A stretch of DNA of 64,000 nucleotides from Candidatus Wallbacteria bacterium (GCA_028687545.1 JAQTZZ010000002.1:139635-203634), one strand, 5' to 3'. Positions 1,990-43,273 are shown, counted from the first letter of the stretch. Numbers and translations are program-made. The notes: generated by a model not told the origin, from the letters alone.

Positions 1990-2000
1990 ATCTCGCTGAG

Positions 2001-4640: not shown

Positions 4641-4652
4641 ACACGCGATGAG

Positions 4653-9332: not shown

Positions 9333-10140
9333 AGGTACGCTTCTTAAATCTGTCGTAAAACAACTGCCACTGTTCAGGCACTTTCCTGACAACCTGGTCG
9401 TAGAATTCAAGGTATCTGCGACTTTGATCCTCAACCGATTCATCCGGATTGGCTGAAGTCAGATTCTCAAGCACAATCCTGTGAAATCCATTTTTTTTCC
9501 GCTTCAGGTAAATTCCCACTACAGGAAGCCCGTATCGCTTTGAGAGCCTGGCAGGCCCTGCCGGGAATGACACATCGCATCCGCACCAGGAGAGCCTGAT
9601 CCCGTTCGGTCCTCCGTCATGGTCTGAGATCAGGCCCAGCACTTCCTTTTTCCTGATCAGCCTGAGAACCCCCAGAATGTTGTCATGGTCGATCAATCTG
9701 ATTCCGACCTTATCCCTGTAACTGTTCAATATTTTCTCCTGCAGTTCGCTTCTGGCGCGCAAGTAGATCGAAGTGAGCGGCAGCCCGTATGCCACCAGAG
9801 CACCTCCCAGCAGTTCCCAGTTTCCCAGATGCATTGAGAGAAAAATCATGGCTTTCCCGCTGCTGCGCGCTTTTTTCACCAGTTCCTGATCGAGCTCGTC
9901 AAAACGCACGATCCGCCTGATCTGATCCGGAAACAGGCTGAAATAAAAAAGTTCAAAGAGCAGCTGCCCCTGCTGTCTGAAAAATTCCCTGACAGTCTTC
10001 TGAAGCTTAAATTCACTGATGTCAGGGAAAAGAGCCCGCAGATTCCGCTCAGGCACCTCGGCCAGGGAGGGGGCGCACCGATAAACAAACAGCCCGATAA
10101 GCCGGGCTGTTGAACTTCCAATCCTGTATAAAAGCATCAC
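9319..10140 (-). CDS. lpxL: lipid A late acyltransferase, LpxL/HtrB (lauroyl/myristoyl acyltransferase) family
   Basis: 273-aa product with the family's size and layout (MHLGNWELLGG; DHDGGPNGIRL). Overlaps the giant gene's stop by 4 bp and waaA's start by 14 bp. The exact paralog (LpxL, LpxM or LpxP) is not resolvable. Confidence 0.7.
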   Translation of the reverse strand: MMLLYRIGSSTARLIGLFVYRCAPSLAEVPERNLRALFPDISEFKLQKTVREFFRQQGQLLFELFYFSLFPDQIRRIVRFDELDQELVKKARSSGKAMIFLSMHLGNWELLGGALVAYGLPLTSIYLRARSELQEKILNSYRDKVGIRLIDHDNILGVLRLIRKKEVLGLISDHDGGPNGIRLSWCGCDVSFPAGPARLSKRYGLPVVGIYLKRKKNGFHRIVLENLTSANPDESVEDQSRRYLEFYDQVVRKVPEQWQLFYDRFKKRTYGLD

Positions 10141-16100: not shown

Positions 16101-18107
16101 CCTTTCCAGGTATTCGCAGGCGTCCTGCCATTTGGAAAGTTTGAGGCTGATGCTGCCAAGATTCCTCAAGGCTTCCAGGCATTCCGGAGCCTTAGCCAGC
16201 ACGTCCCTGAAACAGGCGTAGCCTCCTTCCAGGTCGTGTTCCTCAAGCAGCAGCTTCCCTTTGAGAAGCAGCGGATTATAATCGTCAGGCTTGAGGGTCA
16301 GGCATTTTTCGATGAAACGTCCGGCCTTGCGGTAATCTTTCTGACTGCCGGAAAGCATTGCCAGAAAATAATAGGCATCCGCATTTTCTTCGATTTCCAG
16401 GATTTTCTTAAGGTACTGTTCCGCCTGCTGAGGCTTTCCGTTCTGAAAGCAGACCTCAGCCAGTTCAGAGAGCAGATTCAGATGCCTGCTCCCGGTATCG
16501 AGCGAGACGGCCTTTTCCAGGTAATAGATCGTTTCCTCGATCAAACCCCTCTCACGGGAAATCTTTCCGAGGTAATAATAAATCTCATTCTGGTAGGGAT
16601 TGAGTTCAGCCACTTTCTTGAATTCCAGAAAGGCTTTTTCCAGGTCTTTCTGCTCAAAATAAGCCTTGGCGAGATAGAAATGCAGCCTTTCATTGAAGGG
16701 TTCATATTCAAGGGCTTTCAGCCACTCGCGGGTTGCTTCGCCGGTCTTTCCCTGTTCGTAGAAAGAGAGCCCCAGCTCGAAATAACTGCGGAAACTGTCC
16801 AGCCCCATGTTTTCCAGAATCGAGGAGGCTTTCTCGCGCACGAGCTGGGATTTGTCCTTGAGTGCTCCGATGAGAGCTTCGGTGGCTTCGCTGCTGCCTA
16901 TCCCGGCCAGGGCTTCCACAACCGCCACCCTTACTTCTTCCTGCGGATCAGACAGATATTTCATCAATTCAGGTACTGCTTCCTTATACCCCATGAATTT
17001 GATCGTGTTGATAGTTTCCACCCTGATGAAAGGTGAAGGTGATGACATTGTATTCAGGAGCAGCCGATAGATTTCTTCGCAGGGAAAATTCCGGAGAGCC
17101 TGGAGTGCGACTTTTTTCAGCTCCAGGTCATCGCTTTCCAGGGCAGAAATGAAGATGCCCTTGCTCTTCTCGTCCCCGATTTTGATCAGGGCGCTCAGGA
17201 TTTCCTTCTTCACTTCCCGATGGGTATCGTTGAATGCGTTGATCAGTGCTTCCTGTGTGGTTTCCAGGCCGAGCCGTTCCAATGCCCGGGCTGCATTCCT
17301 CCTGACTTCCCACTGGTGGTCTGCAAGGGCTTTGACCAGGTTGGGGGCAGACTTTTCGTCTGACAGTTCACCCATCGCCCAGACGCAGTTTTTCCGCACA
17401 TCAGGGTTGGAGTCCTCCATAGCTCGGATCAGAGCGTCGACAGCTGAGGAATTGCCAACTCTACCCAAGGCACGGGCTGCCAGAGAACGCACTTTACCGT
17501 TCTGGTCCTTGAGGGATTCCAGGATCGCCGGAATCGCCCGCTCGTCTCCGAGCTGAAAGAGCATTTCCAGAGCCTTGCTCCGAAGCTGCGGGGCCGGATC
17601 ATTCAAGGCGGCGATCAATGCATCGATTGAGCGCTTGTCATGGAAGACTTCCAGAGCTTCCAGCACCTGGCCTCTGACTTCCCGGTTCTCATCCGACATG
17701 ATCTGCAGCAATGGTTCCAGAGCCCGTTCGTCGCCAATGTTCTTCAGGGCATCGATTGCAGTTTTGCGTACATCGCTGTTCTGGTCTCTGAGCATCGGCA
17801 GCATGCATTCGACGCTGCCCTTGTTCCTGAATTCTCCCAGAGCCCTCGTGGCTATGATCCGGATTTCTTTGTTATTCTCCCGGAGAAGCTGCTCCAGAAC
17901 CGGTATGATTCTGGTGTCTTTCAGTTCCAGAAAAATCTCCACCACCCTGACTACAACCTGCTGGTTGAGGGTTGGGAGCAGCCTTTTAATGTCTTCGAAA
18001 TAGTCCAGCAGCCTGTTCTTGCGAATTAATTCCAAGGCTTCGAGTTTATCCAGCAGGGACGGACTTTCTAAACCCTTGATAATCTTTTCTTGTTCAGCAC
18101 TTTTCAT
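10137..18107 (-). CDS. giant (2656 aa) HEAT-repeat plus TPR-repeat protein
   Basis: Uninterrupted ORF. N-terminal ~450 aa are PBS-lyase-type HEAT repeats (DVRKTAIDALKNIGDERALEPL; NREVRGQVLEALE...). The rest is dozens of 34-aa TPR-like units (A.YYLG..Y...G....A...F.KA.E.DP). GGGGGA Shine-Dalgarno before the ATG at 18107. Confidence 0.85.
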   Translation of the reverse strand: MKSAEQEKIIKGLESPSLLDKLEALELIRKNRLLDYFEDIKRLLPTLNQQVVVRVVEIFLELKDTRIIPVLEQLLRENNKEIRIIATRALGEFRNKGSVECMLPMLRDQNSDVRKTAIDALKNIGDERALEPLLQIMSDENREVRGQVLEALEVFHDKRSIDALIAALNDPAPQLRSKALEMLFQLGDERAIPAILESLKDQNGKVRSLAARALGRVGNSSAVDALIRAMEDSNPDVRKNCVWAMGELSDEKSAPNLVKALADHQWEVRRNAARALERLGLETTQEALINAFNDTHREVKKEILSALIKIGDEKSKGIFISALESDDLELKKVALQALRNFPCEEIYRLLLNTMSSPSPFIRVETINTIKFMGYKEAVPELMKYLSDPQEEVRVAVVEALAGIGSSEATEALIGALKDKSQLVREKASSILENMGLDSFRSYFELGLSFYEQGKTGEATREWLKALEYEPFNERLHFYLAKAYFEQKDLEKAFLEFKKVAELNPYQNEIYYYLGKISRERGLIEETIYYLEKAVSLDTGSRHLNLLSELAEVCFQNGKPQQAEQYLKKILEIEENADAYYFLAMLSGSQKDYRKAGRFIEKCLTLKPDDYNPLLLKGKLLLEEHDLEGGYACFRDVLAKAPECLEALRNLGSISLKLSKWQDACEYLERIEEKDRDAEIYACLGEANLNAGRLELATEYLGKALSIQRENEKFHLMLAEAFFRNSNFDDGISILKKLLEIKPESVDAYLCMCSAYRKRKLFDEALKLYDRALKISPSDREVYSRKADCLIEMNNYLLAVDFLEGLPSGLKSPELKLKLVRAYFELGRVVDAERIIREIPEERKVPGYHYLLGKILRLRGKLSHAIVAFKTAISQTPSDFGAYLELGQAYLANGEVTEANLLFKSILDNEPENFQALLGLAMVYKEQKMLNDAKELLQKALLHQPKFFDAYFYLGKILKEQGLFEEALNEFHRAVEIDFSSYQAYFEIGEVYQKLGKEQDALLAMEKVMELNPSFKQAFLQAGRIYYHKQDFVQAEANFRQYLKFEPENAEVREFLGRIYLTRKEFGQVIELLRPLWPGNYSAGMVLADAYWKKGSHAKAEEILREICKDKRESQAYLMLGGVLACQEKHDLARKSLDKAVELAPEKLAVLLDAARILIDQKRHGDAVSFLQKAEKLDRVSEDVGYLLTVCYLETGNYEKAAEKVEFLRETPDPNPEYILLSGKINFNLKKHVLAQKDFEEYLSHHPSSEDPWLFMSRIYFEQGHYHLAEEAVKKLLMLNPYHESARYNLARIYQLAGKREEARKILEELIENLPNYLDSYIELGRMLREDKRAGDAISILEKARHKDPENLTLLSELAAAYFDRKLKREAEKILEKVIPLKPDNFLPYQLLAMIYREDGKLDKAAFLLERAIFLSPVQMDLRMMLSQIMEEQNNLTGAVKALENFPGDKPPEMFEKLARLYLAGNEREKALLCFEKCKNNLEIGKIHLENGEYDQALVDFKAVLVQSPDAGSEYYLSLLNYKQGNFEQASEWLGKAGGAGEQRIEELGGLIARARGDLETSVELFRKLMVNTGEARYGLLLAQSYFAKCDYANSILELERFMKICPQDCEGRKLLARAYLLSENTHQALKTLEPVPARDKDAELLSIEAEIFIAMNENEKAKESLRRALNFNTDDVGVRSRLAQVYFKMGRYAEAVHEYRAVVERKETPEILMNLGEAHYYNGDFEDALFKFQKLKELLPAEPRVRIYLARLYREKERFSEAEIELQELRQMEKESTPTVDYELGLISFKLGDLNKAADLFRKVYSLNNAFEQVNLYLAKLRLKEDQIDDAIPFLDEQSRLTPDDRETNLLLAKCYFEKKKYDSAQSLFKRLIERWPETAEAYYWLARIYWQQNMLDAATRNMERAIQYNPRFKPAMHDIGKILIERDRIDEAISYLEKATYLDEASYDLRITLGTAYEKAHMLNEAIAQYEKARNLSIGEPEAYYLSGYVYQKLGKPDKAYQNLLKVIEMTGGYKDTRYRLALLEKGMGKTSEAKENLEKYLEKNGEDINAFFELGTIYYQEHDFNLALKHLEQVVLNDPNRAEAYYYLGMIYLERKLLEDSIRLFQKAIEVSPNFVEAYFEMGRIHRSRGDLKAALPCLERAVHLRMNNQEFLREMGEVYLSMKRFKEAEELYQKLLYLDPNSFEAFYRLGTIEATKKNPEGALDYFKKARELKEKDPDLLLWMGKTYWHLRDFEKSVTVLSKIKEYYPRNSVEAYKLLADIYYSRDMISETVAEIKKAMEVSQDHELKIRLARCYVRIGKLDDALPLLHEVLGNFPDSQESLEIIGNIYFKKNRFQEALRYFQKLLLEREDDEELLRKEAECYEGLNEDEKARQIYQKLSEKRPQDYRIHMGMGKLFLRLKMNDNAIVVLEKCRKIEPGKAEPYIYLGDLYVGKGMMEEAISYYKKAIEVEPVSLKARLSLARIYKDKKLYDRAITAYKDIIRENPQETEAHNMLAQIYLDRELYDYALEELQKVIGLMPEGAQGYFMLAEVYKELSRFEEAAKMLEEGLRRDSRNLDAHFSLSSLYLKKGRLDDAVLEYKRIIALDENNVNAHFYLGKAYRDKGMIDEAVAEFIVVVNLAPVDSEITREAQEMLKPKRVNTTFWKDLEAEKE

Positions 18108-32029: not shown

Positions 32030-32830
32030 ATGTCGATGGGTTTAAAAATCATCCCAGGTGGAACCATGATTGATACAGATAAACTGCAGGTACTGATCGA
32101 GAAAGCCGGAAACCTCCAGATCCGGGATTATAAATCTCTGGACACGATCGTGCACGAAGCTGAATCAATTTTCGATCGAACTCCCGATAATTCCCGCTTT
32201 CTGAACAAATTGAAAAGCATCAATTTCTCCCCGCTTTCGATCGGCGCCTCCTCGCAGGAACTCAGCACTTCCTGGACATCCGGCAGAGATAAGATTATTT
32301 CTTTCTTCAAAGATATAATCGAAGAGAGCAGACTCAATTTTTTCTTCGAAAATTCAGGGGAAATCTCAGAACATTTTTCGGTTAAAGCGGATGAATTCTT
32401 CATCTGGCAGTTCCACGACGAAGAAATGCGGGGACAGCTGGAGGAACTTTTAGAGAAATTGACGGCTTCACCCGTACTTCATCTTGCAGTGCCGGGGAAA
32501 ATGCGTTTCCACGACCTGGACCAGATTATTCCAGACCTCAGAATGGCGATCTTTCTGCTCTCTTTCCGGGAAAGCAACTATCCTGACTTCAAACTCTCGC
32601 TCCCGATTCCGGAAGCCCTGCTTCAGGAAATGTTCGTGCAGCTGGGTTATTTTCTGGGAAAACTCGGCCCGGAAAAAGTGCTGATATTCGTCAGAGAGGG
32701 CCAGGGCATTAAGAAACCGTCATTTCTGGAAAACCTGGATCATGTTGTTTTCACGGACAAGGGAAGCTGGAAAAATGAATTCACCTCAAAGTTTCAGGGT
32801 GAGAATCGGAAAAAAATCATTCTTCACTAG
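32030..32830 (+). CDS. hypothetical protein (266 aa), no confident family
   Basis: Long ORF with a plausible start region; the 3' end overlaps the convergent zinc-ribbon gene by 14 bp; no diagnostic motif recognised. Confidence 0.45.
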   Translation: MSMGLKIIPGGTMIDTDKLQVLIEKAGNLQIRDYKSLDTIVHEAESIFDRTPDNSRFLNKLKSINFSPLSIGASSQELSTSWTSGRDKIISFFKDIIEESRLNFFFENSGEISEHFSVKADEFFIWQFHDEEMRGQLEELLEKLTASPVLHLAVPGKMRFHDLDQIIPDLRMAIFLLSFRESNYPDFKLSLPIPEALLQEMFVQLGYFLGKLGPEKVLIFVREGQGIKKPSFLENLDHVVFTDKGSWKNEFTSKFQGENRKKIILH

Positions 32831-34085
32831 GAATTTCCGGATTATCTTCGGCAAAATCCAGTGACTCGCAGCCAAACAGGTCGTCATAGGCAAAGTAGAT
32901 CATTCCCGCACTCAACGGCAGCGTGGCCAGCAAACCGATCCCGGCAAGAAGAGCCCCAAGTAAATTGATTGAAAACAGCGACAGCCCGAATTTGACAAAT
33001 CCGGCCCTGTTTTTGCTGATCAGCTTGATACTGTAAAGTGTGGCCTCCTGATATTCGAGTTTGCGGTCAATCACCAGCAGAGTGGTGAAAATGTAATGCA
33101 CAAAAAGCACTATCCCGGGAATCACCAGCAGAATAGTACCTACGCTGATCTGAATGCCAGTGACGACACCCAGCAGCACCAGGGGCTTTCCGTAAATCTG
33201 CCCCATCTGCAGGTCCTGATATCCCGCATCCTTGAACTGGGAGACATGATGGCAGAACTGATAAAAACCGGCGCTCATGACCGGAGTGATGATCAGAGCC
33301 ATCAGCAGTGTGGAGAAATACAGCACTGCCGGGGGGAACATCAGGTGGACTGAAAGATAGAGTACTGAGAAAAACAGGGTTGCGATGAATAAAAACAGAA
33401 AAGACCAGATCAGGGTAATGGCTGGTTCGGTTTTCAGGATATCGATGCTTTTAAACAGATATTCCTTGGTTTTTCCTGGCAGGATGATGGCGCTCTTATA
33501 AGCGATCCCGATGTCTGAGGTGTTTTTTTTCTGCGTTGATTTGCTCACAGCTCCTCCTGCCGGAGCCTCAATTTTCGGTTCATCCTTCTTTTCGATTTCA
33601 GTCAGGAGACTGCCAATCAAATGCTCTTTCTGAATAATCTTCTTTTTATGCTCGTCTGTATCAGGGGACATCTGCTTTAATCCATCCAGCAGATCTTCAT
33701 CAACCAGTTCATCCGGTAAACTTTTTTTATCAGCTGGAAGGGATGCTTTATCATTCACTGCAGGTTTCTGCGTGGTGCCAGTCTTGGAAACCTGGGCCGG
33801 CTTGGAGGGGATGCCGGGTTTGGCAGGAGTTTTGGGAGCTGCTGAAGATAATGGGGCAGCGGTTTTGGAAGCGGCAGCCTGCTTAGGAGGAGTTGCACTT
33901 TTTTCGGTTGCTTTCTGTGCCTGTGGAGTTGTTCCGGATTTCTGCCCGGTCCCTCCTCCACCTTTCGCAGCTGCATCAGGCTGGGCTGGTTCGAGACCGT
34001 CTACCCTGCTGCCGCAACTGGCGCAAAATCTCTTCCCCCTTGCCTTGTAATCGCCGCATTTAGGACAAGCCATCTCACCCTCCAA
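32817..34085 (-). CDS. zinc-ribbon domain membrane protein with a Pro/Ala/Lys/Thr-rich linker
   Basis: N-terminal CPKCG...CASCG zinc ribbon, ~150-aa low-complexity linker, C-terminal multi-pass membrane domain. Confidence 0.6.
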   Translation of the reverse strand: MEGEMACPKCGDYKARGKRFCASCGSRVDGLEPAQPDAAAKGGGGTGQKSGTTPQAQKATEKSATPPKQAAASKTAAPLSSAAPKTPAKPGIPSKPAQVSKTGTTQKPAVNDKASLPADKKSLPDELVDEDLLDGLKQMSPDTDEHKKKIIQKEHLIGSLLTEIEKKDEPKIEAPAGGAVSKSTQKKNTSDIGIAYKSAIILPGKTKEYLFKSIDILKTEPAITLIWSFLFLFIATLFFSVLYLSVHLMFPPAVLYFSTLLMALIITPVMSAGFYQFCHHVSQFKDAGYQDLQMGQIYGKPLVLLGVVTGIQISVGTILLVIPGIVLFVHYIFTTLLVIDRKLEYQEATLYSIKLISKNRAGFVKFGLSLFSINLLGALLAGIGLLATLPLSAGMIYFAYDDLFGCESLDFAEDNPEIPSEE

Positions 34086-34215: not shown

Positions 34216-35418
34216 TCATTTCATTTCGCCATACAGGACAGGCATTCTGAATTCACTGACAGAGACCATCGCGACCGTATTGCGGCGGACCTGTCCGGAG
34301 AAGCATATTTTCAGATAATTTTCCGAAAAACCAGTGTTCAGACCTTTTTTGGATTCCTCGACGAGTACCGGAAGGGACCGGCCCAGATAGCGCCTCCTCC
34401 TCGATTCAAACAGGGTGTCCCGCAAGCTGGTGATCAGCCTGATCCGCTCCCCCATCACCTGCCTGGACAGAGCCGATTCCTTCAGATCCATGGCTTTAGT
34501 CCCTTCGCGGAATGAAAACGGGAAAACATGCAGATAGGCGAATTCCCCCGCCTCAACTACTGCCATGGTTTCCTTGAAGTCCCTGTCTGTCTCTCCCGGA
34601 AAGCCGACGATCACGTCTCCGGTGATCTCCATGCCGGGAACATTCTGCAATTCGGATACAACACGCAGAATGTCGGCAGCCGTATAGCGTCTGTTCATCA
34701 GCTTCAACACTCGATCCGATCCTGACTGCATGGAAATGTGCAGATGAGGCATCAGCTTATGATCGTAAAACGCCTTGATCAATGCCGGAGTTATCTCCTG
34801 GGGGTGCAGCGAGCCAAGCCTCAGCCTCAGCAGGTCTTCGATCCCTGAGATTCTGTCGATCAGTTCGGGAAGGTATCGGGGTTCCCCCAGATCGAATCCG
34901 TATTTTCCCAGATGCACTCCTGTCAACACGATTTCACGGAATCCGTTTTTTACCAGATTTTCGACCTCTGAAACTGCTTCAGTCATTACTTTACTCTCCA
35001 GGGCAGGCCTGAGCTTTGGTACTATGCAATAGGCACAGAAACTATCGCAGCCATCCTGGATTTTGACGAAAGCACGGGTATGGGATGCGAATCCTGAAAT
35101 CCGGCTGGCAGTGATTCCGAATTTGTCTCTGAAAGCGGCAGTCTCAAAATATTCCACGCTGTAATTGGAAAGCCTTGCCCTGAGATTTTCCGAAATGCAT
35201 CCCACGAGCCAGACTGATTTGCCGCTGTTCCGGGCGGATTTCACAAGCCTCGCCACTTTGCATTCGGACTCGGAGGTCACGACGCAGGATTTGACGATCA
35301 GAAGCTCGGCTTCGCTGAATCCGGTTGACTGATACCCAAGCCTGCTCAGTTCTTCGCGGATCAGTTCACCCTCGTACTGGTTGACTTTGCAGCCGAACGC
35401 ATGCAGGTGGAATTTCAT
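34216..35418 (-). CDS. MiaB-like radical SAM methylthiotransferase (MtaB/RimO-like)
   Basis: N-terminal MTTase domain (KFHLHAFGCKVNQYEGE), radical SAM region and a C-terminal TRAM-like tail. Start set at the ATG at 35416-35418 (MKFHL), a 4-bp overlap with rsmE. Confidence 0.75.
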   Translation of the reverse strand: MKFHLHAFGCKVNQYEGELIREELSRLGYQSTGFSEAELLIVKSCVVTSESECKVARLVKSARNSGKSVWLVGCISENLRARLSNYSVEYFETAAFRDKFGITASRISGFASHTRAFVKIQDGCDSFCAYCIVPKLRPALESKVMTEAVSEVENLVKNGFREIVLTGVHLGKYGFDLGEPRYLPELIDRISGIEDLLRLRLGSLHPQEITPALIKAFYDHKLMPHLHISMQSGSDRVLKLMNRRYTAADILRVVSELQNVPGMEITGDVIVGFPGETDRDFKETMAVVEAGEFAYLHVFPFSFREGTKAMDLKESALSRQVMGERIRLITSLRDTLFESRRRRYLGRSLPVLVEESKKGLNTGFSENYLKICFSGQVRRNTVAMVSVSEFRMPVLYGEMK

Positions 35419-36134
35419 CTGAGCGAGCCTTTCCGCTGGAGGAGAAGCGCAGCGATCACAGTGGCCGCGTTGGAAGTGCGCAGGATGTTGCCTGAGAGCC
35501 TGACCGGAATAAAACCGTTCGCTCCTGCCAGTTCCATTTCTCCACATGTAAAATCTCCTTCAGGACCCACAAGCGCTAGAATTTCCGAATGCCTTATCTC
35601 CATTTCAGCTAAGCATCTGGAATTCGCTTCCAGCGAAAAAATCAGTTTCTGGTCTGCAGCCGATTTCACCAGTTCCGTGAACAGGATCGGTTCGGAGATT
35701 GATGGGATCTTTTTTCCTCTGCACTGTTTCGCAGCTTCCTTCGCGATTCCGAGCCAGCGTTCCCTGAGCTTTTGATTTTTCCCAGCGACTGGGCGGATGA
35801 TCGTCCGCTCCGAAATAAAAGGGATGATCCGGTCCACATTCAACTGGGTAAGATTATCGATTACAGACTCAAAGTCCCGCTTCACGAGAGAAATTCCCAT
35901 TGTAACACCGGATTGGTCTGTAATTTTTGATCTCTTGATTAAAATGCAGCGCACAATTTTCAGGCTTGGGTCGAATTCCATCACTGATGCAAGATAATAA
36001 TTTCCGGCATTGTCGATGATCTCGATCCTGTCCTGCGGCTGGACTCGCAGCACATTCTTCAGATGGTGGAATTCCTCGCTGAACTCAATTACATCGCTTC
36101 CGGATAAAACAGGTTCCAGAAAGAGTCGGATCAT
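35415..36134 (-). CDS. rsmE: 16S rRNA (uracil1498-N3)-methyltransferase
   Basis: 239 aa; N-terminal PUA-like region with HHLKNVLRVQPQDRIEIIDNAGNYYLA; SPOUT C-terminal domain. Confidence 0.8.
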   Translation of the reverse strand: MIRLFLEPVLSGSDVIEFSEEFHHLKNVLRVQPQDRIEIIDNAGNYYLASVMEFDPSLKIVRCILIKRSKITDQSGVTMGISLVKRDFESVIDNLTQLNVDRIIPFISERTIIRPVAGKNQKLRERWLGIAKEAAKQCRGKKIPSISEPILFTELVKSAADQKLIFSLEANSRCLAEMEIRHSEILALVGPEGDFTCGEMELAGANGFIPVRLSGNILRTSNAATVIAALLLQRKGSLR

Positions 36135-36175: not shown

Positions 36176-37855
36176 CTATCCCAGGTCCAGAACCTCTATC
36201 CAGTAATTTTTCTCATTTTTGTCCAGGCTCTCCCCGAACAATGACAGGCCATTGCCGTCATCGCAGATGAATGAGAGGCGGCACTCCCGGTCCAGGCAGG
36301 GACTGGTGAAAAACACCGATATTTCACCGCCCTGCTGAGACTTGCTGGGCAGCCTGGCTTCCTTTTCAGTTCCGTTCAGAGATACTTTCATTGTCCCGGC
36401 ATTCCCGGATTGCGTGCTGGCTCTGAATCTGATACAGAGTTTGCGGGAAGAGGCTGCAGCGGAAAAAATGTACTCAATCCTGCCCTTGAATCTTCCGACC
36501 AGATGCGCCCAGCCGGTCCGGCACCACTGATCGCCAGACCAGTAATTCAGAGGAATCGGCTCGAATTTTCCGGAACTGTAATCTCTGATCTCGATTGCCA
36601 GAGTCCCGCCAGCTTGAAGGTGGTATTTTCCTCTTGGGATCGCTGCTCCGGTTTCCGGTCTGATACCTGTATGCAGAAAGTAAAATTCACTCAGGGCTTC
36701 TCTAGTCAGGTCCTTGGGCAGATAGGAAATCACAGCAGGATTCTGCCTCCCGAAATCAGTTTCTTCCAGCTGCCCGGTCTGACTGAAAAGCTCTGATCCA
36801 GGCATTGGACGGTAGAAACTTAATCCATAGCGTACATTATTTTGCCTGAGATGAGAGAGAAATTCCCCGGTCTTTGATAAATCTTCCATTGTCTCGCCTG
36901 GCAACCCGGCAATCGCCAGCACGAAGGGTTCAATGCCGTGGCAGTGGCAGATCTCCACTGCCCGCAATACCTGCTCGGGAGTAATGTTTTTCCTGATCCT
37001 CGCAAGCATTGAAACAGACCCGCTTTCCAGTCCGATGTCCAGCCGCCTGCACCCCATCCGGCGCAGCAGGTCTGCCACATGATCCGATATGTTGTCGGCT
37101 CGCGCATGAGAGCGGAATCTGATTTCCAGGCCATTTTTCTCAATCAATGCTGCCAGTTTCTGCAACTCCCTGAAATCTGTCAGCAGGTCTGCATCTTCAA
37201 AGGAAAAGCAGTCGATTCCGATTGTCCTGAAGTATTTGAATTCACTGATCAGCATTTCAGGATTGCGGAAATCTACCGTACCTTCGTAAAAAAAAGGATT
37301 GATACAGAATGTGCATTCATGTGGACAGCCACGGGAATAAAAAGTCAGCGCAGTTTTCGGCCCTTCGGGATTCTCAACGTCTTTGAGAGCAGGTTCCTGG
37401 TAAAGAGTCTGTCCCGGGTATTTAATGTATGGAAATTCAGATAAAGTTCCCAGATATTTCAACTGGGATGAAAGCAGTCCATGCCTGTATTTGTCGCTTT
37501 CCAGGCAGTCCAGCAGACTCTGAAAACGATTTTTGTAAATGATATAGTCGAATCCGGCATCCAAGTATTGCTTGAAATAATCGAAATACTCATGAAAAAA
37601 AACAATTCTGCATTGCCCTGACTTCAGTGCCCTGATTTTCATGGCCAGCTCCAGCACTCTCTTTTCTCTGGAAGTGAGGATGAAAATATCGTATAGAGCA
37701 AAGTCCTGGGGGAGGGTATTGTCCTGCAGCTCGAAAAAGGAATAATCGAACTTCCCTTCGCAGAGAGCACCGATGGTGAGAAGATTGAGCACCTCGTTCC
37801 GGCAGTATGAACCGGGACTTGTGGCATTAATAAGAGCAAGCCTGGATTTGACCAT
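36176..37855 (-). CDS. B12-binding-domain radical SAM protein with an extra C-terminal beta-rich domain
   Basis: N-terminal cobalamin-binding-like domain; radical SAM motif YSRGCPHECTFC (CX3CX2C); ~150-aa uncharacterised C-terminal extension; 559 aa. Confidence 0.8.
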   Translation of the reverse strand: MVKSRLALINATSPGSYCRNEVLNLLTIGALCEGKFDYSFFELQDNTLPQDFALYDIFILTSREKRVLELAMKIRALKSGQCRIVFFHEYFDYFKQYLDAGFDYIIYKNRFQSLLDCLESDKYRHGLLSSQLKYLGTLSEFPYIKYPGQTLYQEPALKDVENPEGPKTALTFYSRGCPHECTFCINPFFYEGTVDFRNPEMLISEFKYFRTIGIDCFSFEDADLLTDFRELQKLAALIEKNGLEIRFRSHARADNISDHVADLLRRMGCRRLDIGLESGSVSMLARIRKNITPEQVLRAVEICHCHGIEPFVLAIAGLPGETMEDLSKTGEFLSHLRQNNVRYGLSFYRPMPGSELFSQTGQLEETDFGRQNPAVISYLPKDLTREALSEFYFLHTGIRPETGAAIPRGKYHLQAGGTLAIEIRDYSSGKFEPIPLNYWSGDQWCRTGWAHLVGRFKGRIEYIFSAAASSRKLCIRFRASTQSGNAGTMKVSLNGTEKEARLPSKSQQGGEISVFFTSPCLDRECRLSFICDDGNGLSLFGESLDKNEKNYWIEVLDLG

Positions 37856-37856
37856 C

Positions 37857-39503
37857 TTATCGATTGTTGAGAAAAGCTCCCTGAATCTCAGGAGCTGAGT
37901 TGTTTTTCAAACAGGCCATTCCTGAAAGCAGCAGCAGTATCTTTTCAAATCCTTTATACCCTAAATTCCTGGTGTCTTCAAAAAGGCGCTGAGGCTCGAT
38001 TTTCACTCCATTCGAGGCGGAGAATTCACTCAGCATTTTGCAGAAAAAAGGTCTGCCTTTTTCAAACCAGCGGTCAATCGGCACTTTCAGGGGTGTTTTG
38101 GGTCTTGTGAGTACCTGTTCAGGCAGGTCATTGCGCATCAGTTCATGGAGGATGAATTTGCTCTTTTTCCCGTTCAGCCGGAAATCGTCGGGTAAAGACT
38201 GGAAAAAATTACGGAATCTATAATCTGCAAACGGAACCAATATTTCCGATTCAGCAGCATCAGCAATCCCCCTGATTCTAGGTAACTGATTGTCAGGAAG
38301 GAGTTCATCGTACTGAAAATCAGTCAGCGAATTCATGGGCTTCATCCATTCAATCCAGAAATGTTCCGGTTCAGTCCAACCTTTTTGAAACATCTCCTTT
38401 AATTCGTCTGAATTGAAATATGGCGTAAGATATTCCCTGTGATCAAAGATTTCCTGAAGTTCATCATTGAAAATGTCCTTCAGGATCGTGTTGCGGGGGA
38501 GATTGTCAAGCATCTCTACCGGAAAAAGACTGTAATAGCGGCTCTGCCGCTCTCTCTTTGCCAGAGCGGATAACTGATAATCATATCCCAGCAGCCCTTC
38601 ATCGCTCCCTGCACCATTCACAAAGCTGGAATGCCTTCCTGATAATGCAGCTATGAAGCTGAGCTGCCCCTGAGAACGAAGCAGGAAAGCCTTTTCAGAC
38701 AGAAGTTTTACCATCCAGTGTTTGAACATCTCAAATGTCAAATGGATTTTTTCATGTTTGATCCCAAGATATCTGGCAACTGCCTCGGCAGATTGAATCT
38801 CATTGTAATCAGGTTCGTCAAAAGTAATGGTATAGGCAGTCAAATTCCTGCCCAGCTTTTTCCCGGCTACTGCCAGTGATGACGAATCTATGCCTCCTGA
38901 CAGTAAAAGATTCAAGTCTTTACCGCATCTTAAATTCAGTGCATCCAGAATCAGAGCAAGCAGCGCCTTCTTTGCCTCAGCGAAACTGCCTCTGAAAACT
39001 TCAGCTTTCCAGGTATGGTATTTATCGATTTTCAGAGATTTTAAATTTAATTCCAGACAGTTCCCGGCTGGAAGGGATTGTACTCCAGTCCAGAAGGTCT
39101 GTGTCCCTGGAAGATAAGAATAGCGAAGAAATGACTGGACAGCATTCAGATTCGGAAGTGCCGGTTTCCCGGCCAGAATCGAAACATCGCAGGGATTTTC
39201 ACTGAAACTCAGCACACCCTGCTCCAGACTGTAATAAATCTGCCTGCAACCCATCCGGTCACGAATCAGCAGGCCCAGTTTTTTTTTCTGGTCATGGATC
39301 AGGATCACGGCTTCAAAGTTGAATTCGCGGCAGGCAGCAAGCCCCTTTGTCCTGTATTGTTCACAAAACAATGCTGCAGGGTTGGAAAGTTCAGACAATC
39401 CGAAAAACCTTCCTGATACCGCTACAGTGATCTCACTGGCTGAATGGACCAGCGCTTCTGAACAGATCAGCAGGTTTGATGAGAGGTCCAGCGTACCTCT
39501 CAT
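37857..39503 (-). CDS. asparagine synthetase B-like amidotransferase/adenylating enzyme lacking the N-terminal Cys nucleophile
   Basis: PP-loop LLSGGIDSSSLAV (the AsnB SGGxDSS motif). The N-terminus is MRGT, not MCG, and the ATG is fixed by an ATGA overlap with the upstream TPR gene stop. Confidence 0.8.
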   Translation of the reverse strand: MRGTLDLSSNLLICSEALVHSASEITVAVSGRFFGLSELSNPAALFCEQYRTKGLAACREFNFEAVILIHDQKKKLGLLIRDRMGCRQIYYSLEQGVLSFSENPCDVSILAGKPALPNLNAVQSFLRYSYLPGTQTFWTGVQSLPAGNCLELNLKSLKIDKYHTWKAEVFRGSFAEAKKALLALILDALNLRCGKDLNLLLSGGIDSSSLAVAGKKLGRNLTAYTITFDEPDYNEIQSAEAVARYLGIKHEKIHLTFEMFKHWMVKLLSEKAFLLRSQGQLSFIAALSGRHSSFVNGAGSDEGLLGYDYQLSALAKRERQSRYYSLFPVEMLDNLPRNTILKDIFNDELQEIFDHREYLTPYFNSDELKEMFQKGWTEPEHFWIEWMKPMNSLTDFQYDELLPDNQLPRIRGIADAAESEILVPFADYRFRNFFQSLPDDFRLNGKKSKFILHELMRNDLPEQVLTRPKTPLKVPIDRWFEKGRPFFCKMLSEFSASNGVKIEPQRLFEDTRNLGYKGFEKILLLLSGMACLKNNSAPEIQGAFLNNR

Positions 39504-39901
39504 GATTTACTTTTCCTGCAGTATTCGATCAATTCGAGAATTTTTTCATCCCGCTCATTTTCAGGAATTTTCTCAAGATAATCTAGAGCTTTCACGAAAT
39601 CACCGGACTGCTTGAAAAGGTTGCCGGTTTCATAAAGTGCTTCTGAATCAGAACCCAGTGCCAGCGCTTTTTCAAAATATCCGAATGACTCATCGAATTC
39701 TCCCATTTCACGCAACAGGATCCCCAGTCTGACATAATCGGTTTTTCCAGGATGCGGGTCGTCTTCAAGCCTTTCCTTGAGGATGCTGTAAGCGATCTGG
39801 TAGAGAGCTTTCAGGTAGTACTTGTCATCGCTTTTCGCCTGTTTCAGCAATTCTTTCAGCACCTGGTCATTATCAAGAAGATAAAATGAGTTATTCGACA
39901 T
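39500..39901 (-). CDS. small TPR-repeat protein (133 aa)
   Basis: Two to three TPR-like units; GAGGCGG Shine-Dalgarno before the ATG; stop overlaps the AsnB-like start. Confidence 0.6.
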   Translation of the reverse strand: MSNNSFYLLDNDQVLKELLKQAKSDDKYYLKALYQIAYSILKERLEDDPHPGKTDYVRLGILLREMGEFDESFGYFEKALALGSDSEALYETGNLFKQSGDFVKALDYLEKIPENERDEKILELIEYCRKSKS

Positions 39902-40120
39902 GCCGCCTCAATTGCACACATTGAGATATTATTTACAATAGCATTTTCCATTGCTCATTTCAAACCCGGGTTGTATTGCATCCGTTTTTTTTGCATCCGT
40001 TTTTTTGATTGACATATGAGCTTCATGCAAAAATGACAGTAAAATTTGAAAGTGCCTCTTGAAATTACCACGCTGAGTATATAGATTAAATAATGTACTT
40101 ATCGATTATTTGGGGGTGCA

Positions 40121-40939
40121 ATGAAAGTCATTATCACTGCAGCAGTCACAGGTGCAGAAACCACCCGCGCCCAGCAGCCGAATCTGCCGGTAACTCCGGC
40201 GGAAATCGCCCAGTCCACATATGAAGCCTGCATGGCCGGTGCAGCCATCGTCCACCTGCATGTACGAAAAGACGACGGGACTCCTACCCAGGATGTGGGT
40301 ATCTTTGAGAAAACAATTAAACTGATCCGCGAGAAATGCGAGATTGTGATCGAGATCACCACAGGCGGAGCAGTGGGCATGAGCGATGATGAGCGAGTGG
40401 CTCCGGTCAAACTCAAGCCCGACCTTGCGTCCCTCGACTGCGGCTCAGTCAATTTCGGCGACGACATCCTGCCCAACGGTTTCCCCAGCCTGCGCAGATT
40501 CGCCCGCCTGATGCGCGAACATGGCGTCAAGCCCACCATTGAATGCTTCGATTACGGCCACATCAACAATGCCAAGCTCCTGATCAAGGAAGGCCTGATC
40601 GATCCGCCTTATTATTTCACCTTTGTGACTGGTGTACCGGGTGGAATTCCGGGCACAGTCAAGAATCTTGTCTTCATGCGGGATGAGCTGCCTGAAAATA
40701 CTGTCTGGTCCAGCATCGGCATCGGCGGCAAGGCGTCGCTTCCCATGGGCCTGGCAGCCCTTCTGATGGGCGGCAATGTGCGCACCGGGTTCGAAGACAA
40801 CATCTATTTCAGGAAAGGCCAGCTCGCCAAGAGCAACGCCCAGCTCGTAACCCGGATCGTGGAGTTCGCCAAGGAACTGGGGCACGAGATCGCCACCCCG
40901 GCGGAAGCGAGAGAGATTTTAGGATTGAAGAAAAAGTGA
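40121..40939 (+). CDS. kce: 3-keto-5-aminohexanoate cleavage enzyme (BKACE/DUF849 family)
   Basis: N-terminal VIITAAVTGAETT...PNLPVTPAEIA...AGAAIVHLHVR matches the BKACE family; 272 aa; GGGGGTG Shine-Dalgarno; next to kdd and kamA. Confidence 0.8.
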   Translation: MKVIITAAVTGAETTRAQQPNLPVTPAEIAQSTYEACMAGAAIVHLHVRKDDGTPTQDVGIFEKTIKLIREKCEIVIEITTGGAVGMSDDERVAPVKLKPDLASLDCGSVNFGDDILPNGFPSLRRFARLMREHGVKPTIECFDYGHINNAKLLIKEGLIDPPYYFTFVTGVPGGIPGTVKNLVFMRDELPENTVWSSIGIGGKASLPMGLAALLMGGNVRTGFEDNIYFRKGQLAKSNAQLVTRIVEFAKELGHEIATPAEAREILGLKKK

Positions 40940-40976
40940 ATATCAGTCTGACAAAATTTTTCATTGAGGAGGTTAA

Positions 40977-42017
40977 ATGAAAGGCAATAAGTTCGGAACC
41001 CATCGCGTGATCGAGCCCAAAGGAGTGCTGCCCCAGCCCGCGCTGGTGATCGACAATGACATGAATAAACTATACGACAATGAAATACTCTGCGATGTGA
41101 CCACGCTGAACGTAGACTCGGCAAGCTTCACCCAGATCAAGGACGAAGCCGTAAAAGACCCCAAAAGAATCGAAGAAATAATGCTCGGGATTGTAGAACG
41201 CTTTGGCAAGCATAAAAATCCTGTCACAGGCTCAGGAGGCATGTTCATCGGTAAAGTAGCCAGAATTGGTAAAGCGCTTAAAGGCAAGATCCCTCTTCAG
41301 GAAGGAGACAGAATCGCAAGCCTGGTCTCGCTCTCGCTCACTCCGCTGAAGATCAAGAAAATCAAGAAAATCCACATAGACAAAGATCAGGTGGACATCG
41401 AAGGCCAGGCCATCCTGTTCGAGTCAGCGATTTACGCCAAGCTGCCGGAAGACCTGGACGAGAAACTGGCGCTGGCAGTGCTGGATGTGGCAGGTGCGCC
41501 TGCTCAGACCGCCAAACTGGTGCGGCCGGGCAATACAGTGCTGGTGATAGGCGCAGCAGGCAAATCCGGCCTTCTCTGCTGCTATGTAGCCAAGAAATAT
41601 GCCGGTTGCACCGGCCGTGTGATTGCCCTGGTGCATAGCGAAAAAAGCCTGGACCTGATGAAAAAAGTGAATTTCATTGATAACGTGATCGTGGCCGAAG
41701 CCTCAAACGCAGTGGATGTGCTGGAAAAGGTGGAAGCAGTCACCAACGGACAGCTCTGCGACCTGGTGATCAACTGCGTGAGCCGTGAAAACACGGAGAT
41801 GGGATCGATTCTCCCCTGCAAAGACAATGGTACGGTCTATTTTTTCTCCATGTCCACGAGTTTCACCAAAGCAGCTCTGGGCGCCGAGGGAGTAGGCAAG
41901 GACGTGACCATGGTGATCGGCAACGGCTATACCAAGGATCATGCCGCGATCACTATCGATTTAATGAGGGAATCCGAATGGCTGAGGAAATATTACGAGA
42001 AAAAGTACGTCGGCTGA
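40977..42017 (+). CDS. kdd: L-erythro-3,5-diaminohexanoate dehydrogenase (probable)
   Basis: 346 aa with Rossmann motif VLVIGAAGKSG; GAGGAGG Shine-Dalgarno; sits between kce and kamA as in lysine-fermentation operons. Assignment leans on context as well as sequence. Confidence 0.65.
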   Translation: MKGNKFGTHRVIEPKGVLPQPALVIDNDMNKLYDNEILCDVTTLNVDSASFTQIKDEAVKDPKRIEEIMLGIVERFGKHKNPVTGSGGMFIGKVARIGKALKGKIPLQEGDRIASLVSLSLTPLKIKKIKKIHIDKDQVDIEGQAILFESAIYAKLPEDLDEKLALAVLDVAGAPAQTAKLVRPGNTVLVIGAAGKSGLLCCYVAKKYAGCTGRVIALVHSEKSLDLMKKVNFIDNVIVAEASNAVDVLEKVEAVTNGQLCDLVINCVSRENTEMGSILPCKDNGTVYFFSMSTSFTKAALGAEGVGKDVTMVIGNGYTKDHAAITIDLMRESEWLRKYYEKKYVG

Positions 42018-42028
42018 AAGGAGTGCCT

Positions 42029-43273
42029 ATGGCTAGAGTCTTTTCGGATGTGCCTGAAAAAAAGTGGCAGGACTGGCAGTGGCAGCTGCAGAACCGCCTT
42101 ATGAAACTGCCTGATCTGAAGAAATGCTACCCTCTGACTGGCCAGCAGGTCAAGGATATCCAGAAAGTGCTGGTCAGCTTCAGGATGGCGATCACCCCAT
42201 ATTACCTTTCACTGATCGACCCTCAGAATCCTGACGATCCTGTGATGAAACAGGCTATTCCCACTATCCATGAAACAGAATTTTACCCCACAGATATGGA
42301 TGATCCCCTGCATGAGGAAGTGGATTCGCCTTGTCCTGGTCTCACCCATCGCTACCCTGACCGGGCGCTGCTTTTAGTGACTCATGTCTGCTCGATGTAC
42401 TGCAGGCACTGCACACGCAGGAGAAAAGTCGGAGACAATGAGGACCGGCACCTTCCCAAAAAGCAGCTGCTGGCCGGCTTTGATTACATCAGGAAAACGC
42501 CGCAGATCAGGGATGTGATTCTCTCAGGCGGTGACCCCTTCACCTTGACTGATCAGGAAATAGAGTGGCTGCTCTCTGAGCTTCGCAAGATCAAGCATGT
42601 GGAGATCATCCGTATCGGCACCAGGACTCCGGTCGTACTTCCCATGCGCATCACGGAAGCTCTCTGCCGGATGATCAAGAAGTACCATCCGGTCTACGTC
42701 AATACTCACTTCAATCATTTCCAGGAAATCAACGCAGACTCCAAACGGGCCTGCGAAATGCTTGCAGACCACGGTATTCCGCTCGGCAACCAGTCAGTGC
42801 TTTTAAAAGGAGTCAACGACAATCCGGCAGTGATGAAAAAGCTGGTCTGCGACCTCTTGAAGATCCGCGTCAAACCCTATTACATCTATGAATGCGACAT
42901 GTCCCGCGGCATCAGCCATTTCAGGACCCCTGTCGCCACAGGCATCAGCATCATGGAAAACCTGCGCGGACATGTCTCTGGCCTCGCTGTCCCGCATTTT
43001 GTAATCGACGCTCCAGGCGGAGGCGGAAAAGTGCCTGTGATGCCGACCTACATCATCTCCCAGGGGCCCGGTACGATCGTGCTGCGCAACTACGAAGGCA
43101 AAATCATTTCCTGCCACGACCGTCCGGGCGAAGCCGAAACCGAGGACCTGCCCAAAAACCTGAGCAGATACTATTCCATGGAAGGTGTGGCGGAACTCCT
43201 GAACACCCAGAATCACGCGCTGGATTACGGCAAGATCCTCAAGAAAGGTCCCAAGCGCGGAAAAAGAAAATAA
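42029..43273 (+). CDS. kamA: L-lysine 2,3-aminomutase (radical SAM, PLP-dependent)
   Basis: KamA N-terminal W.DWQWQL region, radical SAM CSMYCRHC, and a conserved C-terminal PLP region. Start set at the ATG at 42029 after AAAGGAG; the track's upstream start at 41978 overlaps kdd. Confidence 0.85.
   Translation: MARVFSDVPEKKWQDWQWQLQNRLMKLPDLKKCYPLTGQQVKDIQKVLVSFRMAITPYYLSLIDPQNPDDPVMKQAIPTIHETEFYPTDMDDPLHEEVDSPCPGLTHRYPDRALLLVTHVCSMYCRHCTRRRKVGDNEDRHLPKKQLLAGFDYIRKTPQIRDVILSGGDPFTLTDQEIEWLLSELRKIKHVEIIRIGTRTPVVLPMRITEALCRMIKKYHPVYVNTHFNHFQEINADSKRACEMLADHGIPLGNQSVLLKGVNDNPAVMKKLVCDLLKIRVKPYYIYECDMSRGISHFRTPVATGISIMENLRGHVSGLAVPHFVIDAPGGGGKVPVMPTYIISQGPGTIVLRNYEGKIISCHDRPGEAETEDLPKNLSRYYSMEGVAELLNTQNHALDYGKILKKGPKRGKRK

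Follow-up and report, generated by a model that had tools for sequence, protein, structure and literature searches.

A 64,000-nucleotide stretch of Candidatus Wallbacteria bacterium (GCA_028687545.1 JAQTZZ010000002.1:139635-203634), here called the window, carries at positions 36,176 to 39,901 three adjacent genes, for a tetratricopeptide repeat (TPR) protein, a homologue of the asparagine synthetase AsnB, and a radical S-adenosylmethionine (SAM) protein. We propose that the last two form a conserved module, in which a glutamine-independent enzyme of the AsnB fold is paired with a radical SAM enzyme that does not depend on cobalamin (B12), and that a sugar-derived or other small-molecule substrate is likelier than a ribosomal peptide. 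We put the probability of this reading at roughly one half. The three genes are arranged as follows.

39500-39901, minus strand: TPR gene, 133 aa; its stop codon overlaps the start of the AsnB-like gene (ATGA)
37857-39503, minus strand: AsnB-like gene, 548 aa; N-terminal glutaminase domain, predicted to be dead, and intact PP-loop synthetase domain
36176-37855, minus strand: radical SAM gene, 559 aa; an N-domain of Rossmann-like fold, then the radical SAM core, then a predicted beta-sandwich at the C-terminus

The gene layout that an earlier note on this DNA had described as an operon is borne out by the open reading frames (ORFs) and by both junctions as read in the sequence. The TPR/AsnB-like junction reads ...AAA TCA TGA, with the start ATG overlapping the stop as ATGA, and the AsnB-like/radical SAM junction reads CGA TAA g ATG, which leaves a 1-nt gap. 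The proteins match TPR_12 (1.7e-11) and TPR_2 (1.3e-09), Asn_synthase (7e-35), and Radical_SAM (1.6e-24) in Pfam, and N-terminal homology (RNEVLN) to the relative P0123 backs the radical SAM start that gives 559 aa. All three are annotated in the NCBI metagenome-assembled genome (MAG) of Candidatus Wallbacteria (MDD2714579-81). A second assembly (Logan), probably built on the same reads, is identical to the locus over 11,293 bp, and the locus is therefore not an artefact of one assembler.

The AsnB-like protein begins with MRGT. It had been described as an AsnB without the N-terminal Cys, and the Cys is indeed absent, but a Cys-to-Arg exchange in an otherwise complete AsnB does not describe the protein. 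About 50 N-terminal residues of the N-terminal nucleophile (Ntn) domain are missing compared with 57 canonical AsnBs, including Cys1, the HRGPD helix, and the R49/R-L region.

39159-39503, minus strand: vestigial Ntn (glutaminase) domain, residues 1-115, from alignment with the 57 canonical AsnBs

We take the glutamine-binding residues of AsnB to be R49, N74, E76, and D98 (E. coli numbering), with Cys1 as the nucleophile. What is left of this site has been replaced: NGE reads S30-G-R32 (N/E/N to S30/R32/G35), and SDTE is deleted. Neither Cys1 nor the glutamine-binding residues of the TIGR01536 model for glutamine-hydrolysing AsnB are present, and PDB sequence matches start at residue 58, which corresponds to residue 118 of the hydroxyamidotransferase TsnB9. 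Judged by these alignments, the AsnB-like protein cannot hydrolyse glutamine.

The synthetase domain has fared differently. In the lines below, L018 is a metagenomic contig that carries a second copy of the gene pair.

38880-38900, minus strand: PP-loop SGGIDSS, residues 202-208, seen by translation, in invariant alignment columns and also in L018
38583-38615, minus strand: GAGSDEGLLGY, residues 297-307; Ala298 stands where AsnB has Glu348, and D301, E302, and Y307 are kept

The ATP-site residues S202-S208, D301, E302, Y307, K449, and K469 lie in invariant AsnB columns, and all are retained. E302 and Y307 correspond to the Glu-Tyr dyad of asparagine synthetase-like (AS-like) enzymes, which mutagenesis showed to be essential for carboxylate activation (PMC13060819). 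The alignment thus agrees with the earlier note both on the PP-loop itself and on the overall state, lost glutamine hydrolysis with a kept ATP site, which is that of enzymes of the beta-lactam synthetase (BLS) and lasso cyclase type. Among the substrate-side residues, the acidic one at the Glu348 position, a feature of TIGR01536, is replaced by Ala298 (Ala149 in L018), DEPxxD has become EKAxxL, and a 100%-conserved Arg is Leu422; 58 of the 108 near-invariant AsnB residues have been lost. The AlphaFold (AF2) model shows a two-domain AsnB fold at a predicted local distance difference test (pLDDT) score of 85.9 and is about equally close to TsnB9, BLS, AsnB, and CarA, with template modelling (TM) scores of 0.54-0.66.

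This structural likeness would also be expected if the module belonged to a carbapenem- or beta-lactam-type pathway, with the AsnB-like enzyme closing a lactam in the manner of CarA/ThnM or BLS and the radical SAM protein tailoring it in the manner of ThnK/L/P. In structure, BLS and CarA rank with the closest matches (TM 0.54-0.63, Foldseek E 1e-19 to 1e-15), and complex carbapenem clusters provide a precedent for combining CarA/ThnM with radical SAM enzymes (PMC9407657). Against this, the fold match is no better than that to AsnB and TsnB9, the sequence match to BLS reaches only E 1e-5 over 118 residues, the Pfam-scanned window ORFs include no CarB/ThnE-type crotonase or CEAS gene, and the radical SAM protein lacks B12 features. 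Moreover, Ala298 sits where BLS and CarA have their catalytic Tyr, which we take to be at position 348 in BLS and 345 in CarA. We consider such a pathway highly improbable.

Profile comparison did not place the protein in any of the families that had been put forward for it, as it scores under all curated thresholds for lasso cyclases, beta-lactam synthetases, and WbpS/exopolysaccharide (EPS) amidotransferases. Its NCBIfam scores, each far below the curated cut-off, are highest for generic AsnB at 144 bits (TIGR01536, 144.1 against a cut-off of 267.1), followed by the EPS amidotransferase model at 113 (TIGR03108, XrtA/PEP-CTERM type, 112.7 against 816.9, with the glutaminase site lost), the Ngg amidotransferase at 76, the lasso cyclase at 57 (NF033535, 56.9 against 525, with only residues 68-228 matched), and the macrolactam cyclase at 40. 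By sequence, the protein is a divergent offshoot of glutamine-hydrolysing AsnB paralogues. A word-indexed homologue search returned only canonical AsnBs, at no more than 26% identity. Since that search missed the L018 relative, which a DNA-pattern scan later found, the ‘orphan’ status of the protein is partly a search artefact. Two of the three nearest canonical relatives (P0002 and P0003, ∼26% identity) are encoded in O-antigen/EPS loci, among glycosyltransferases and Wzy/Wzt genes.

The strongest argument for a functional module is its recurrence. The metagenome DNA-pattern scan led to L018, and a 30.9-kb ENA contig, L025, carries the same AsnB-like protein. In both, an Asn_synthase ORF of 392 aa precedes, by 350 bp and on the same strand, a gene of the radical SAM family. 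The L018 ORF (5296-6474) shows 34% identity to residues 194-530 of the window protein, at 196 bits and E 1e-61; tblastn matches to three canonical AsnB loci score lower (L009 149, L008 138, and L007 115 bits). The L018 radical SAM protein is 39% identical to that of the window. As substitutions peculiar to their subfamily, at residues otherwise near-invariant in AsnB, the two AsnB-like proteins share Ala at the Glu348 position, DEPxxD changed to (E/D)K(A/K)xx(L/V), Arg changed to Leu/Phe, and Gly changed to Pro, and the L018 protein retains all the ATP-site residues (the PP-loop and the counterparts of D301, E302, Y307, K449, and K469). Its glutaminase N-domain is wholly absent, and a search for leftover coding sequence upstream revealed no remnant. 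By neighbour-joining, the two radical SAM proteins linked to AsnB-like genes cluster with P0122, apart from a permease-linked Muiribacteriota clade. Because two very rare families adjoin at two loci only 34-39% identical to each other, there is strong sequence-based evidence that the AsnB-like and radical SAM proteins are a functional pair, in line with the pairing that the earlier note had drawn from the window. Both contigs (L018, JGI, at 7913; L025, ENA, at 12619) end at codon 363 of the radical SAM gene, and this shared end suggests a repeat or a strain-variable junction. On L025, Wzy_C and GT9 genes are found 2-10 kb away on the opposite strand.

Recurrence also bears on whether the AsnB-like protein could be a lineage-specific relic, a decaying polysaccharide amidotransferase paralogue that catalyses nothing and neighbours the radical SAM gene by chance. 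Decay would fit the N-terminal truncation, the lost near-invariant residues, the failure of the word-indexed search to find a closer relative, and the GC content at third codon positions (GC3), which is 0.46-0.48 in the TPR and AsnB-like genes and 0.55-0.65 in the radical SAM gene and neighbours. It fits poorly with an intact 548-aa ORF and a confidently predicted fold, or with the selective retention of the ATP-site residues, and the same substitutions next to the same partner at a locus 34-39% identical argue for selection. A relic is therefore quite improbable in our view.

The radical SAM protein, the second member of the pair, has the following parts.

37496-37855, minus strand: N-terminal flavodoxin/Rossmann-like domain, residues 1-120, with a five-strand fold in the model and no cobalamin-binding signature
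37583-37600, minus strand: FFHEY motif in the N-domain, invariant in the family alignment
37304-37327, minus strand: CX3CX2C cluster motif CPHECTFC (C177, C181, C184), seen by translation and invariant in family alignments
36179-36607, minus strand: predicted C-terminal beta-sandwich, residues 417-559, with the motif HLVGRFxGxxxY and predicted strands at 457-557

It had been taken for a B12-binding protein, typically a methyltransferase, and neither part of this description is supported by the analysis. The N-domains of four family members have no match to the cobalamin-binding domain PF02310 even at E<=10, and Pfam recognizes the radical SAM core only; PF02310 is present in 19 of 24 more distant relatives (P0124-P0147). 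The GGxH motif of B12-radical SAM relatives is replaced by FFHEY, and GEGE by YKNRF here and YKNxF in every member of the family. In Foldseek the closest structure is AprD4, with QCMT and TsrM next-best, although the score for the AprD4 family diol dehydratase model is 59.5 bits against a cut-off of 500 (NF033070). AprD4 is cobalamin-independent, and homologues of AprD4 and ArsL fall inside the B12-radical SAM similarity network without binding cobalamin (PMC12931638, a 2026 review). A methyltransferase role does not follow, because the cobalamin-binding signature is absent and the closest structure is AprD4, and the protein, as far as its sequence tells, probably does not use B12.

A cobalamin-dependent radical SAM methyltransferase that works with the AsnB-like enzyme is nevertheless an alternative to be weighed. 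The best NCBIfam scores of the core are to class B families (PhpK 82, TIGR04013 81, HpnJ 77, and QCMT 75.5 bits), the five-strand Rossmann-like N-domain is of a fitting fold, and QCMT and TsrM are second-tier structural matches. All these scores are far under the cut-offs, however, AprD4 is clearly the top structural match, the positions of GG and GEGE hold bulky residues in every member, and cobalamin-free enzymes are known from within the network (PMC12931638). In addition, the relative P0122 lacks most of the N-domain. Together with the missing PF02310 match, these points make the methyltransferase unlikely. P0122 itself (L004 1-320) is without the first ∼70-84 residues of the N-domain, and its start is overlapped by the end of an ORF for a GT-C/PIG-U-like membrane protein; the N-domain may be dispensable, or the L004 locus may be rearranged.

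By exhaustive HMMER search of 1.84 billion representatives, the radical SAM family consists of five clusters at 50% identity, that of the window included, and its full-length edge is marked by a fall in score from 328 to 212 bits. L010 and L018 are further members recovered by DNA scans. Named members come from Candidatus Muirbacterium halophilum and Muiribacteriota MAGs. All five full-length members share the conserved region of the HLVGRFxGxxxY motif (∼140 residues). Neither Pfam nor PDB sequence searches matched this C-terminal domain, and a profile search with its alignment returned nothing, known family members included, and is hence uninformative. Foldseek matched the domain weakly, at TM below 0.3, to glycoside hydrolases, most of which presumably carry modules of the CBM6/CBM35 type.

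The sister clade offers a clue to the substrate. At four Muiribacteriota loci an ArsP_1-family permease gene precedes the radical SAM gene, overlapping it by 4 nt (in L001 a gap of 2 nt separates them), a divergent DUF123 (GIY-YIG-like) gene lies upstream, and a Bmp (PnrA-like) lipoprotein or a rhodanese gene lies downstream; no homologue of the AsnB-like or TPR protein occurs in these loci. The coupling to a permease suggests that a small molecule is transported. In L001/L002, L005, L006, and L010, polysaccharide genes (Pel or Wza/Wzz), a xanthine/uracil permease, or pyrBI are found nearby. A lead towards ArsL and arsinothricin, raised by the ArsP_1 neighbour and a weak ArsL match, was dropped, as ArsQ is GntP-like and ArsL belongs to a different family with a C-terminal Cys motif.

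The earlier note had left open whether the module tailors a peptide or a sugar, and the evidence leans towards the sugar. We favour a sugar-derived or other small molecule over a peptide because of the sister-clade permease, the ancestry of the AsnB-like protein among polysaccharide-locus AsnBs, the resemblance to AprD4, and the lack of peptide-processing genes. In addition to the O-antigen/EPS setting of two of the three nearest relatives, a lipopolysaccharide (LPS)/glycan region of the window (8172-31902) ends 4.3 kb from the module, on its downstream side. This support is circumstantial.

We infer the chemistry, the order of steps, the class of substrate, and any part played by the TPR protein as follows. 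The AsnB-like enzyme would bind ATP at the PP-loop, adenylate a carboxylate of the substrate, and form an amide or a bond of that kind. The nucleophile would not be ammonia from glutamine but free ammonia, a different amine, or an amine that the substrate itself carries. With SAM, the [4Fe-4S] cluster of the CX3CX2C motif would generate a 5'-deoxyadenosyl radical, and the radical SAM enzyme would perform a change initiated by H-abstraction on the same substrate. Given the resemblance to AprD4, it would more likely catalyse a rearrangement or an elimination without B12 than a methyl transfer with B12. The C-terminal beta-sandwich probably helps to hold the substrate. In this genome the TPR gene, translationally coupled, precedes the two-gene module.

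The TPR gene (GC3 0.463) lies outside the conserved unit, the core of which is the two genes. Its product is a singleton cluster in a collection of 15 billion proteins, and no TPR counterpart was found at the second locus, L018.

Several points weigh against the proposed module. The pair is known from two loci only, one of which the protein search missed, and a 350-bp stretch parts the L018 genes, which makes their co-transcription uncertain. Reportedly, the E348A exchange in E. coli AS-B abolishes formation of beta-aspartyl-AMP, and the Ala at this position may compromise adenylate formation; BLS and CarA have a non-acidic residue there as well. Cobalamin-dependent radical SAM enzymes bind their cofactor without a strict sequence motif, and the absence of PF02310 is therefore no proof that B12 is absent; the invariant His88 of FFHEY could conceivably be a B12 ligand. 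Linker residues 405-455 of the radical SAM model have pLDDT below 50, and the CBM-like matches of the domain behind them are weak. The leaning towards a sugar is circumstantial, with the housekeeping genes rsmE and mtaB lying between the module and the glycan locus, and the chemistry of both families is predicted from sequence and models.

Upstream of the module, the region shared with divergent lysine-fermentation genes (kce, kdd, and kamA) contains a small ORF that is a weak candidate for a peptide precursor.

39902-40120, no strand assigned: divergent intergenic region, shared with the lysine-fermentation genes
39963-39935, minus strand: promoter-like site in this region
39976-40006: 15-nt tandem repeat without mismatch, 2.1 copies of TTGCATCCGTTTTTT, within the divergent promoter region; encodes KKTDA twice inside the 28-aa ORF
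39929-40015, minus strand: 28-aa ORF, MSIKKTDAKKTDAIQPGFEMSNGKCYCK, just upstream of the TPR gene

Lasso peptide cyclases are Cys-less AsnB homologues, and the module could accordingly be read as producing a lasso-like or other ribosomally made peptide that is modified after translation (RiPP): the AsnB-like enzyme would cyclise or amidate the peptide, the radical SAM enzyme would modify it, the TPR protein would present it, and MSIKKTDAKKTDAIQPGFEMSNGKCYCK would be the precursor. NCBIfam does list a lasso-cyclase match, and the ORF lies on the same strand and fits the lasso pattern (Thr(-2), core-1 Ala, core-7 Glu), as do 13 of 563 (2.3%) small ATG-ORFs of the window. Its ribosome-binding site is poor, however, its leader would have only 12 residues, the tandem repeat and the predicted promoter lie inside it, and nothing similar is found at L018. 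That locus has no small coding-strand ORF between its two genes and no TPR gene, and the sole small ORF upstream of its AsnB-like gene, of 37 aa, does not, as we read it, fit the lasso pattern. The cyclase model scores under the generic AsnB models. Pfam and NCBIfam searches of the neighbours showed no protease, RiPP recognition element (RRE), transporter, or crotonase near the module, a B-type protease included, and no transglutaminase-like or PqqD-like gene is found among the neighbours TPR, radical SAM, rsmE, mtaB, and kce. Of the earlier statement that neither a protease nor a precursor gene is adjacent, the first half stands, and the second is qualified by the ORF just upstream, weak evidence as it is. 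A RiPP is improbable on these grounds. The 15-nt repeat may instead be a regulator site or a slippage duplication. Rfam searches of the whole window, the intergenic region, and the L018 spacer gave no riboswitch or other RNA family.

Downstream, rsmE and mtaB follow on the same strand, and there is no terminator-like site after the radical SAM gene. The five genes could be an RNA-modification operon, in which the module would, for example, activate the carboxylate of t6A/ms2t6A on tRNA. A promoter-like site in the 41-nt gap ahead of rsmE speaks against a common transcript, and rsmE and mtaB are often neighbours in any case. The radical SAM protein has neither the Cys triad of UPF0004 (no PF00919 match) nor the TRAM domain that would place it with MiaB, RimO, or MtaB, its family alignment shows no conserved N-domain Cys, and none of the related loci has RNA-modification neighbours. 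We regard this operon as very improbable. A rough order of the alternatives, from the most to the least probable, is the B12-dependent methyltransferase, the RiPP or lasso-like module, the relic, the RNA-modification operon, and the carbapenem-like pathway.

A defence function for the module found no support in a PADLOC scan, which gave generic PP-loop and radical SAM matches only, and a viral contig scan gave no match. Four genes lie between the glycan region and the module, namely rsmE, mtaB, and the genes for a zinc-ribbon membrane protein and a TIR-like protein. The longest mtaB ORF (34216-35547, 443 aa) overlaps rsmE by 133 nt, with UPF0004 starting at residue 45; the Logan call is 400 aa, and the true start is probably near 35415. 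The zinc-ribbon protein gene (32817-34085, minus strand) is BPSS1780-related and converges with the TIR-like gene (32030-32830, plus strand). The TIR-like protein matches the Pfam CAP12/Pycsar TIR family weakly and PADLOC PDC-S35 at 2.7e-13, and its gene may be a single-gene defence candidate.

The glycan region encodes a Kdo transferase, a lipid A acyltransferase, a GmhB-like HAD phosphatase, glycosyltransferases GT4, GT9, and GT2, two SAM methyltransferases, NAD epimerases/dehydratases, a TylCIII-type sugar C-methyltransferase, an RmlC-like epimerase, and an FkbM methyltransferase. An ORF of 2656 aa (10137-18107, minus strand) is flanked by the gene for the lipid A acyltransferase and one that is RadA-like. 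At 142-7982, a 615-aa TPR protein is followed by tandem radical SAM-SPASM proteins (879 and 1109 aa) of low GC3, with C-terminal TPR/NatA-like repeats, an unusual fusion. On the other side of the module (40121-43273), kamA is of the AblA type and above the equivalog cut-off, the window is without genes for a beta-lysine 5,6-aminomutase (kamDE) or a 3-aminobutyryl-CoA ammonia-lyase, and an extracytoplasmic function (ECF) sigma factor gene follows.

Enzymes of the AsnB fold that do not hydrolyse glutamine perform unusual chemistry, such as the formation of beta-lactam rings and lasso knots, and related AS-like enzymes make hydroxamates and peptide nitriles. Every new branch of the fold has so far led to a new reaction. 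More tentatively than for the module as such, the window and L018 proteins may represent a further branch, marked by a decaying or deleted glutaminase domain, by Ala in place of the general base, and by a substrate pocket that has been rebuilt. Together with a dedicated AprD4-like partner independent of cobalamin, and with a logic like that of QueE/QueC but unrelated enzymes, it could build an amide, lactam, or nitrile on a sugar- or nucleoside-like molecule, in an undescribed pathway confined to bacteria of the Wallbacteria/Muiribacteriota type; we hold this more specific proposal to be doubtful. The branch would show a stepwise loss of the glutaminase, truncated in one genome and deleted in the other. 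Its partners belong to a very rare radical SAM family whose C-terminal domain is novel, all of this in candidate phyla without cultured members, and an active pair would point to an undescribed metabolite or glycan modification. The locus also teaches that likeness to ‘B12-radical SAM’ families is not evidence for methyltransferase function.

Among known systems, BLS (1JGT), CarA (1Q15), and the lasso cyclases share with the window protein the two-domain AsnB fold, the PP-loop, the lack of an N-terminal Cys, and a non-canonical residue at the AsnB Glu348 position. They differ in that the N-domain of the window protein is ∼50 residues shorter, and that of L018 absent, in the Ala that replaces Tyr at 348, and in very low sequence similarity, and none of their pathway partner genes is present at the window locus. 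The hydroxyamidotransferase TsnB9 (7YLZ) is the top match of the window protein (1e-9, TM 0.66), and AsnB paralogues of the TIGR03108/WbpS-like polysaccharide type are among its best matches. The canonical AsnB homologues compared here have an intact glutamine-hydrolysing domain, most of them starting with MCG, which the window protein lacks, and in the homologues from polysaccharide loci, ∼26% identical, substrate-side residues are invariant that are replaced in the window protein. The radical SAM protein shares its Rossmann-like fold with AprD4, which does not bind B12 (PMC12931638). AprD4 (6FD2), a 1,2-diol dehydratase of apramycin biosynthesis, is 17% identical; the window protein has an extra beta-sandwich of 140 residues, and no AprD3-like reductase partner was seen. 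A mechanistic parallel for the pair as a whole is one of analogy only, and lies in 7-deazapurine biosynthesis. Apart from the PP-loop, where the window protein matches QueC (Pfam 3.3e-06, PADLOC 2.4e-07), the pair has no homology to QueC or QueE. As at the window locus, QueE and QueC combine a radical SAM enzyme with a PP-loop ATPase without a glutaminase, and in their pathway the radical SAM enzyme acts first and the ammonia-dependent PP-loop enzyme follows.

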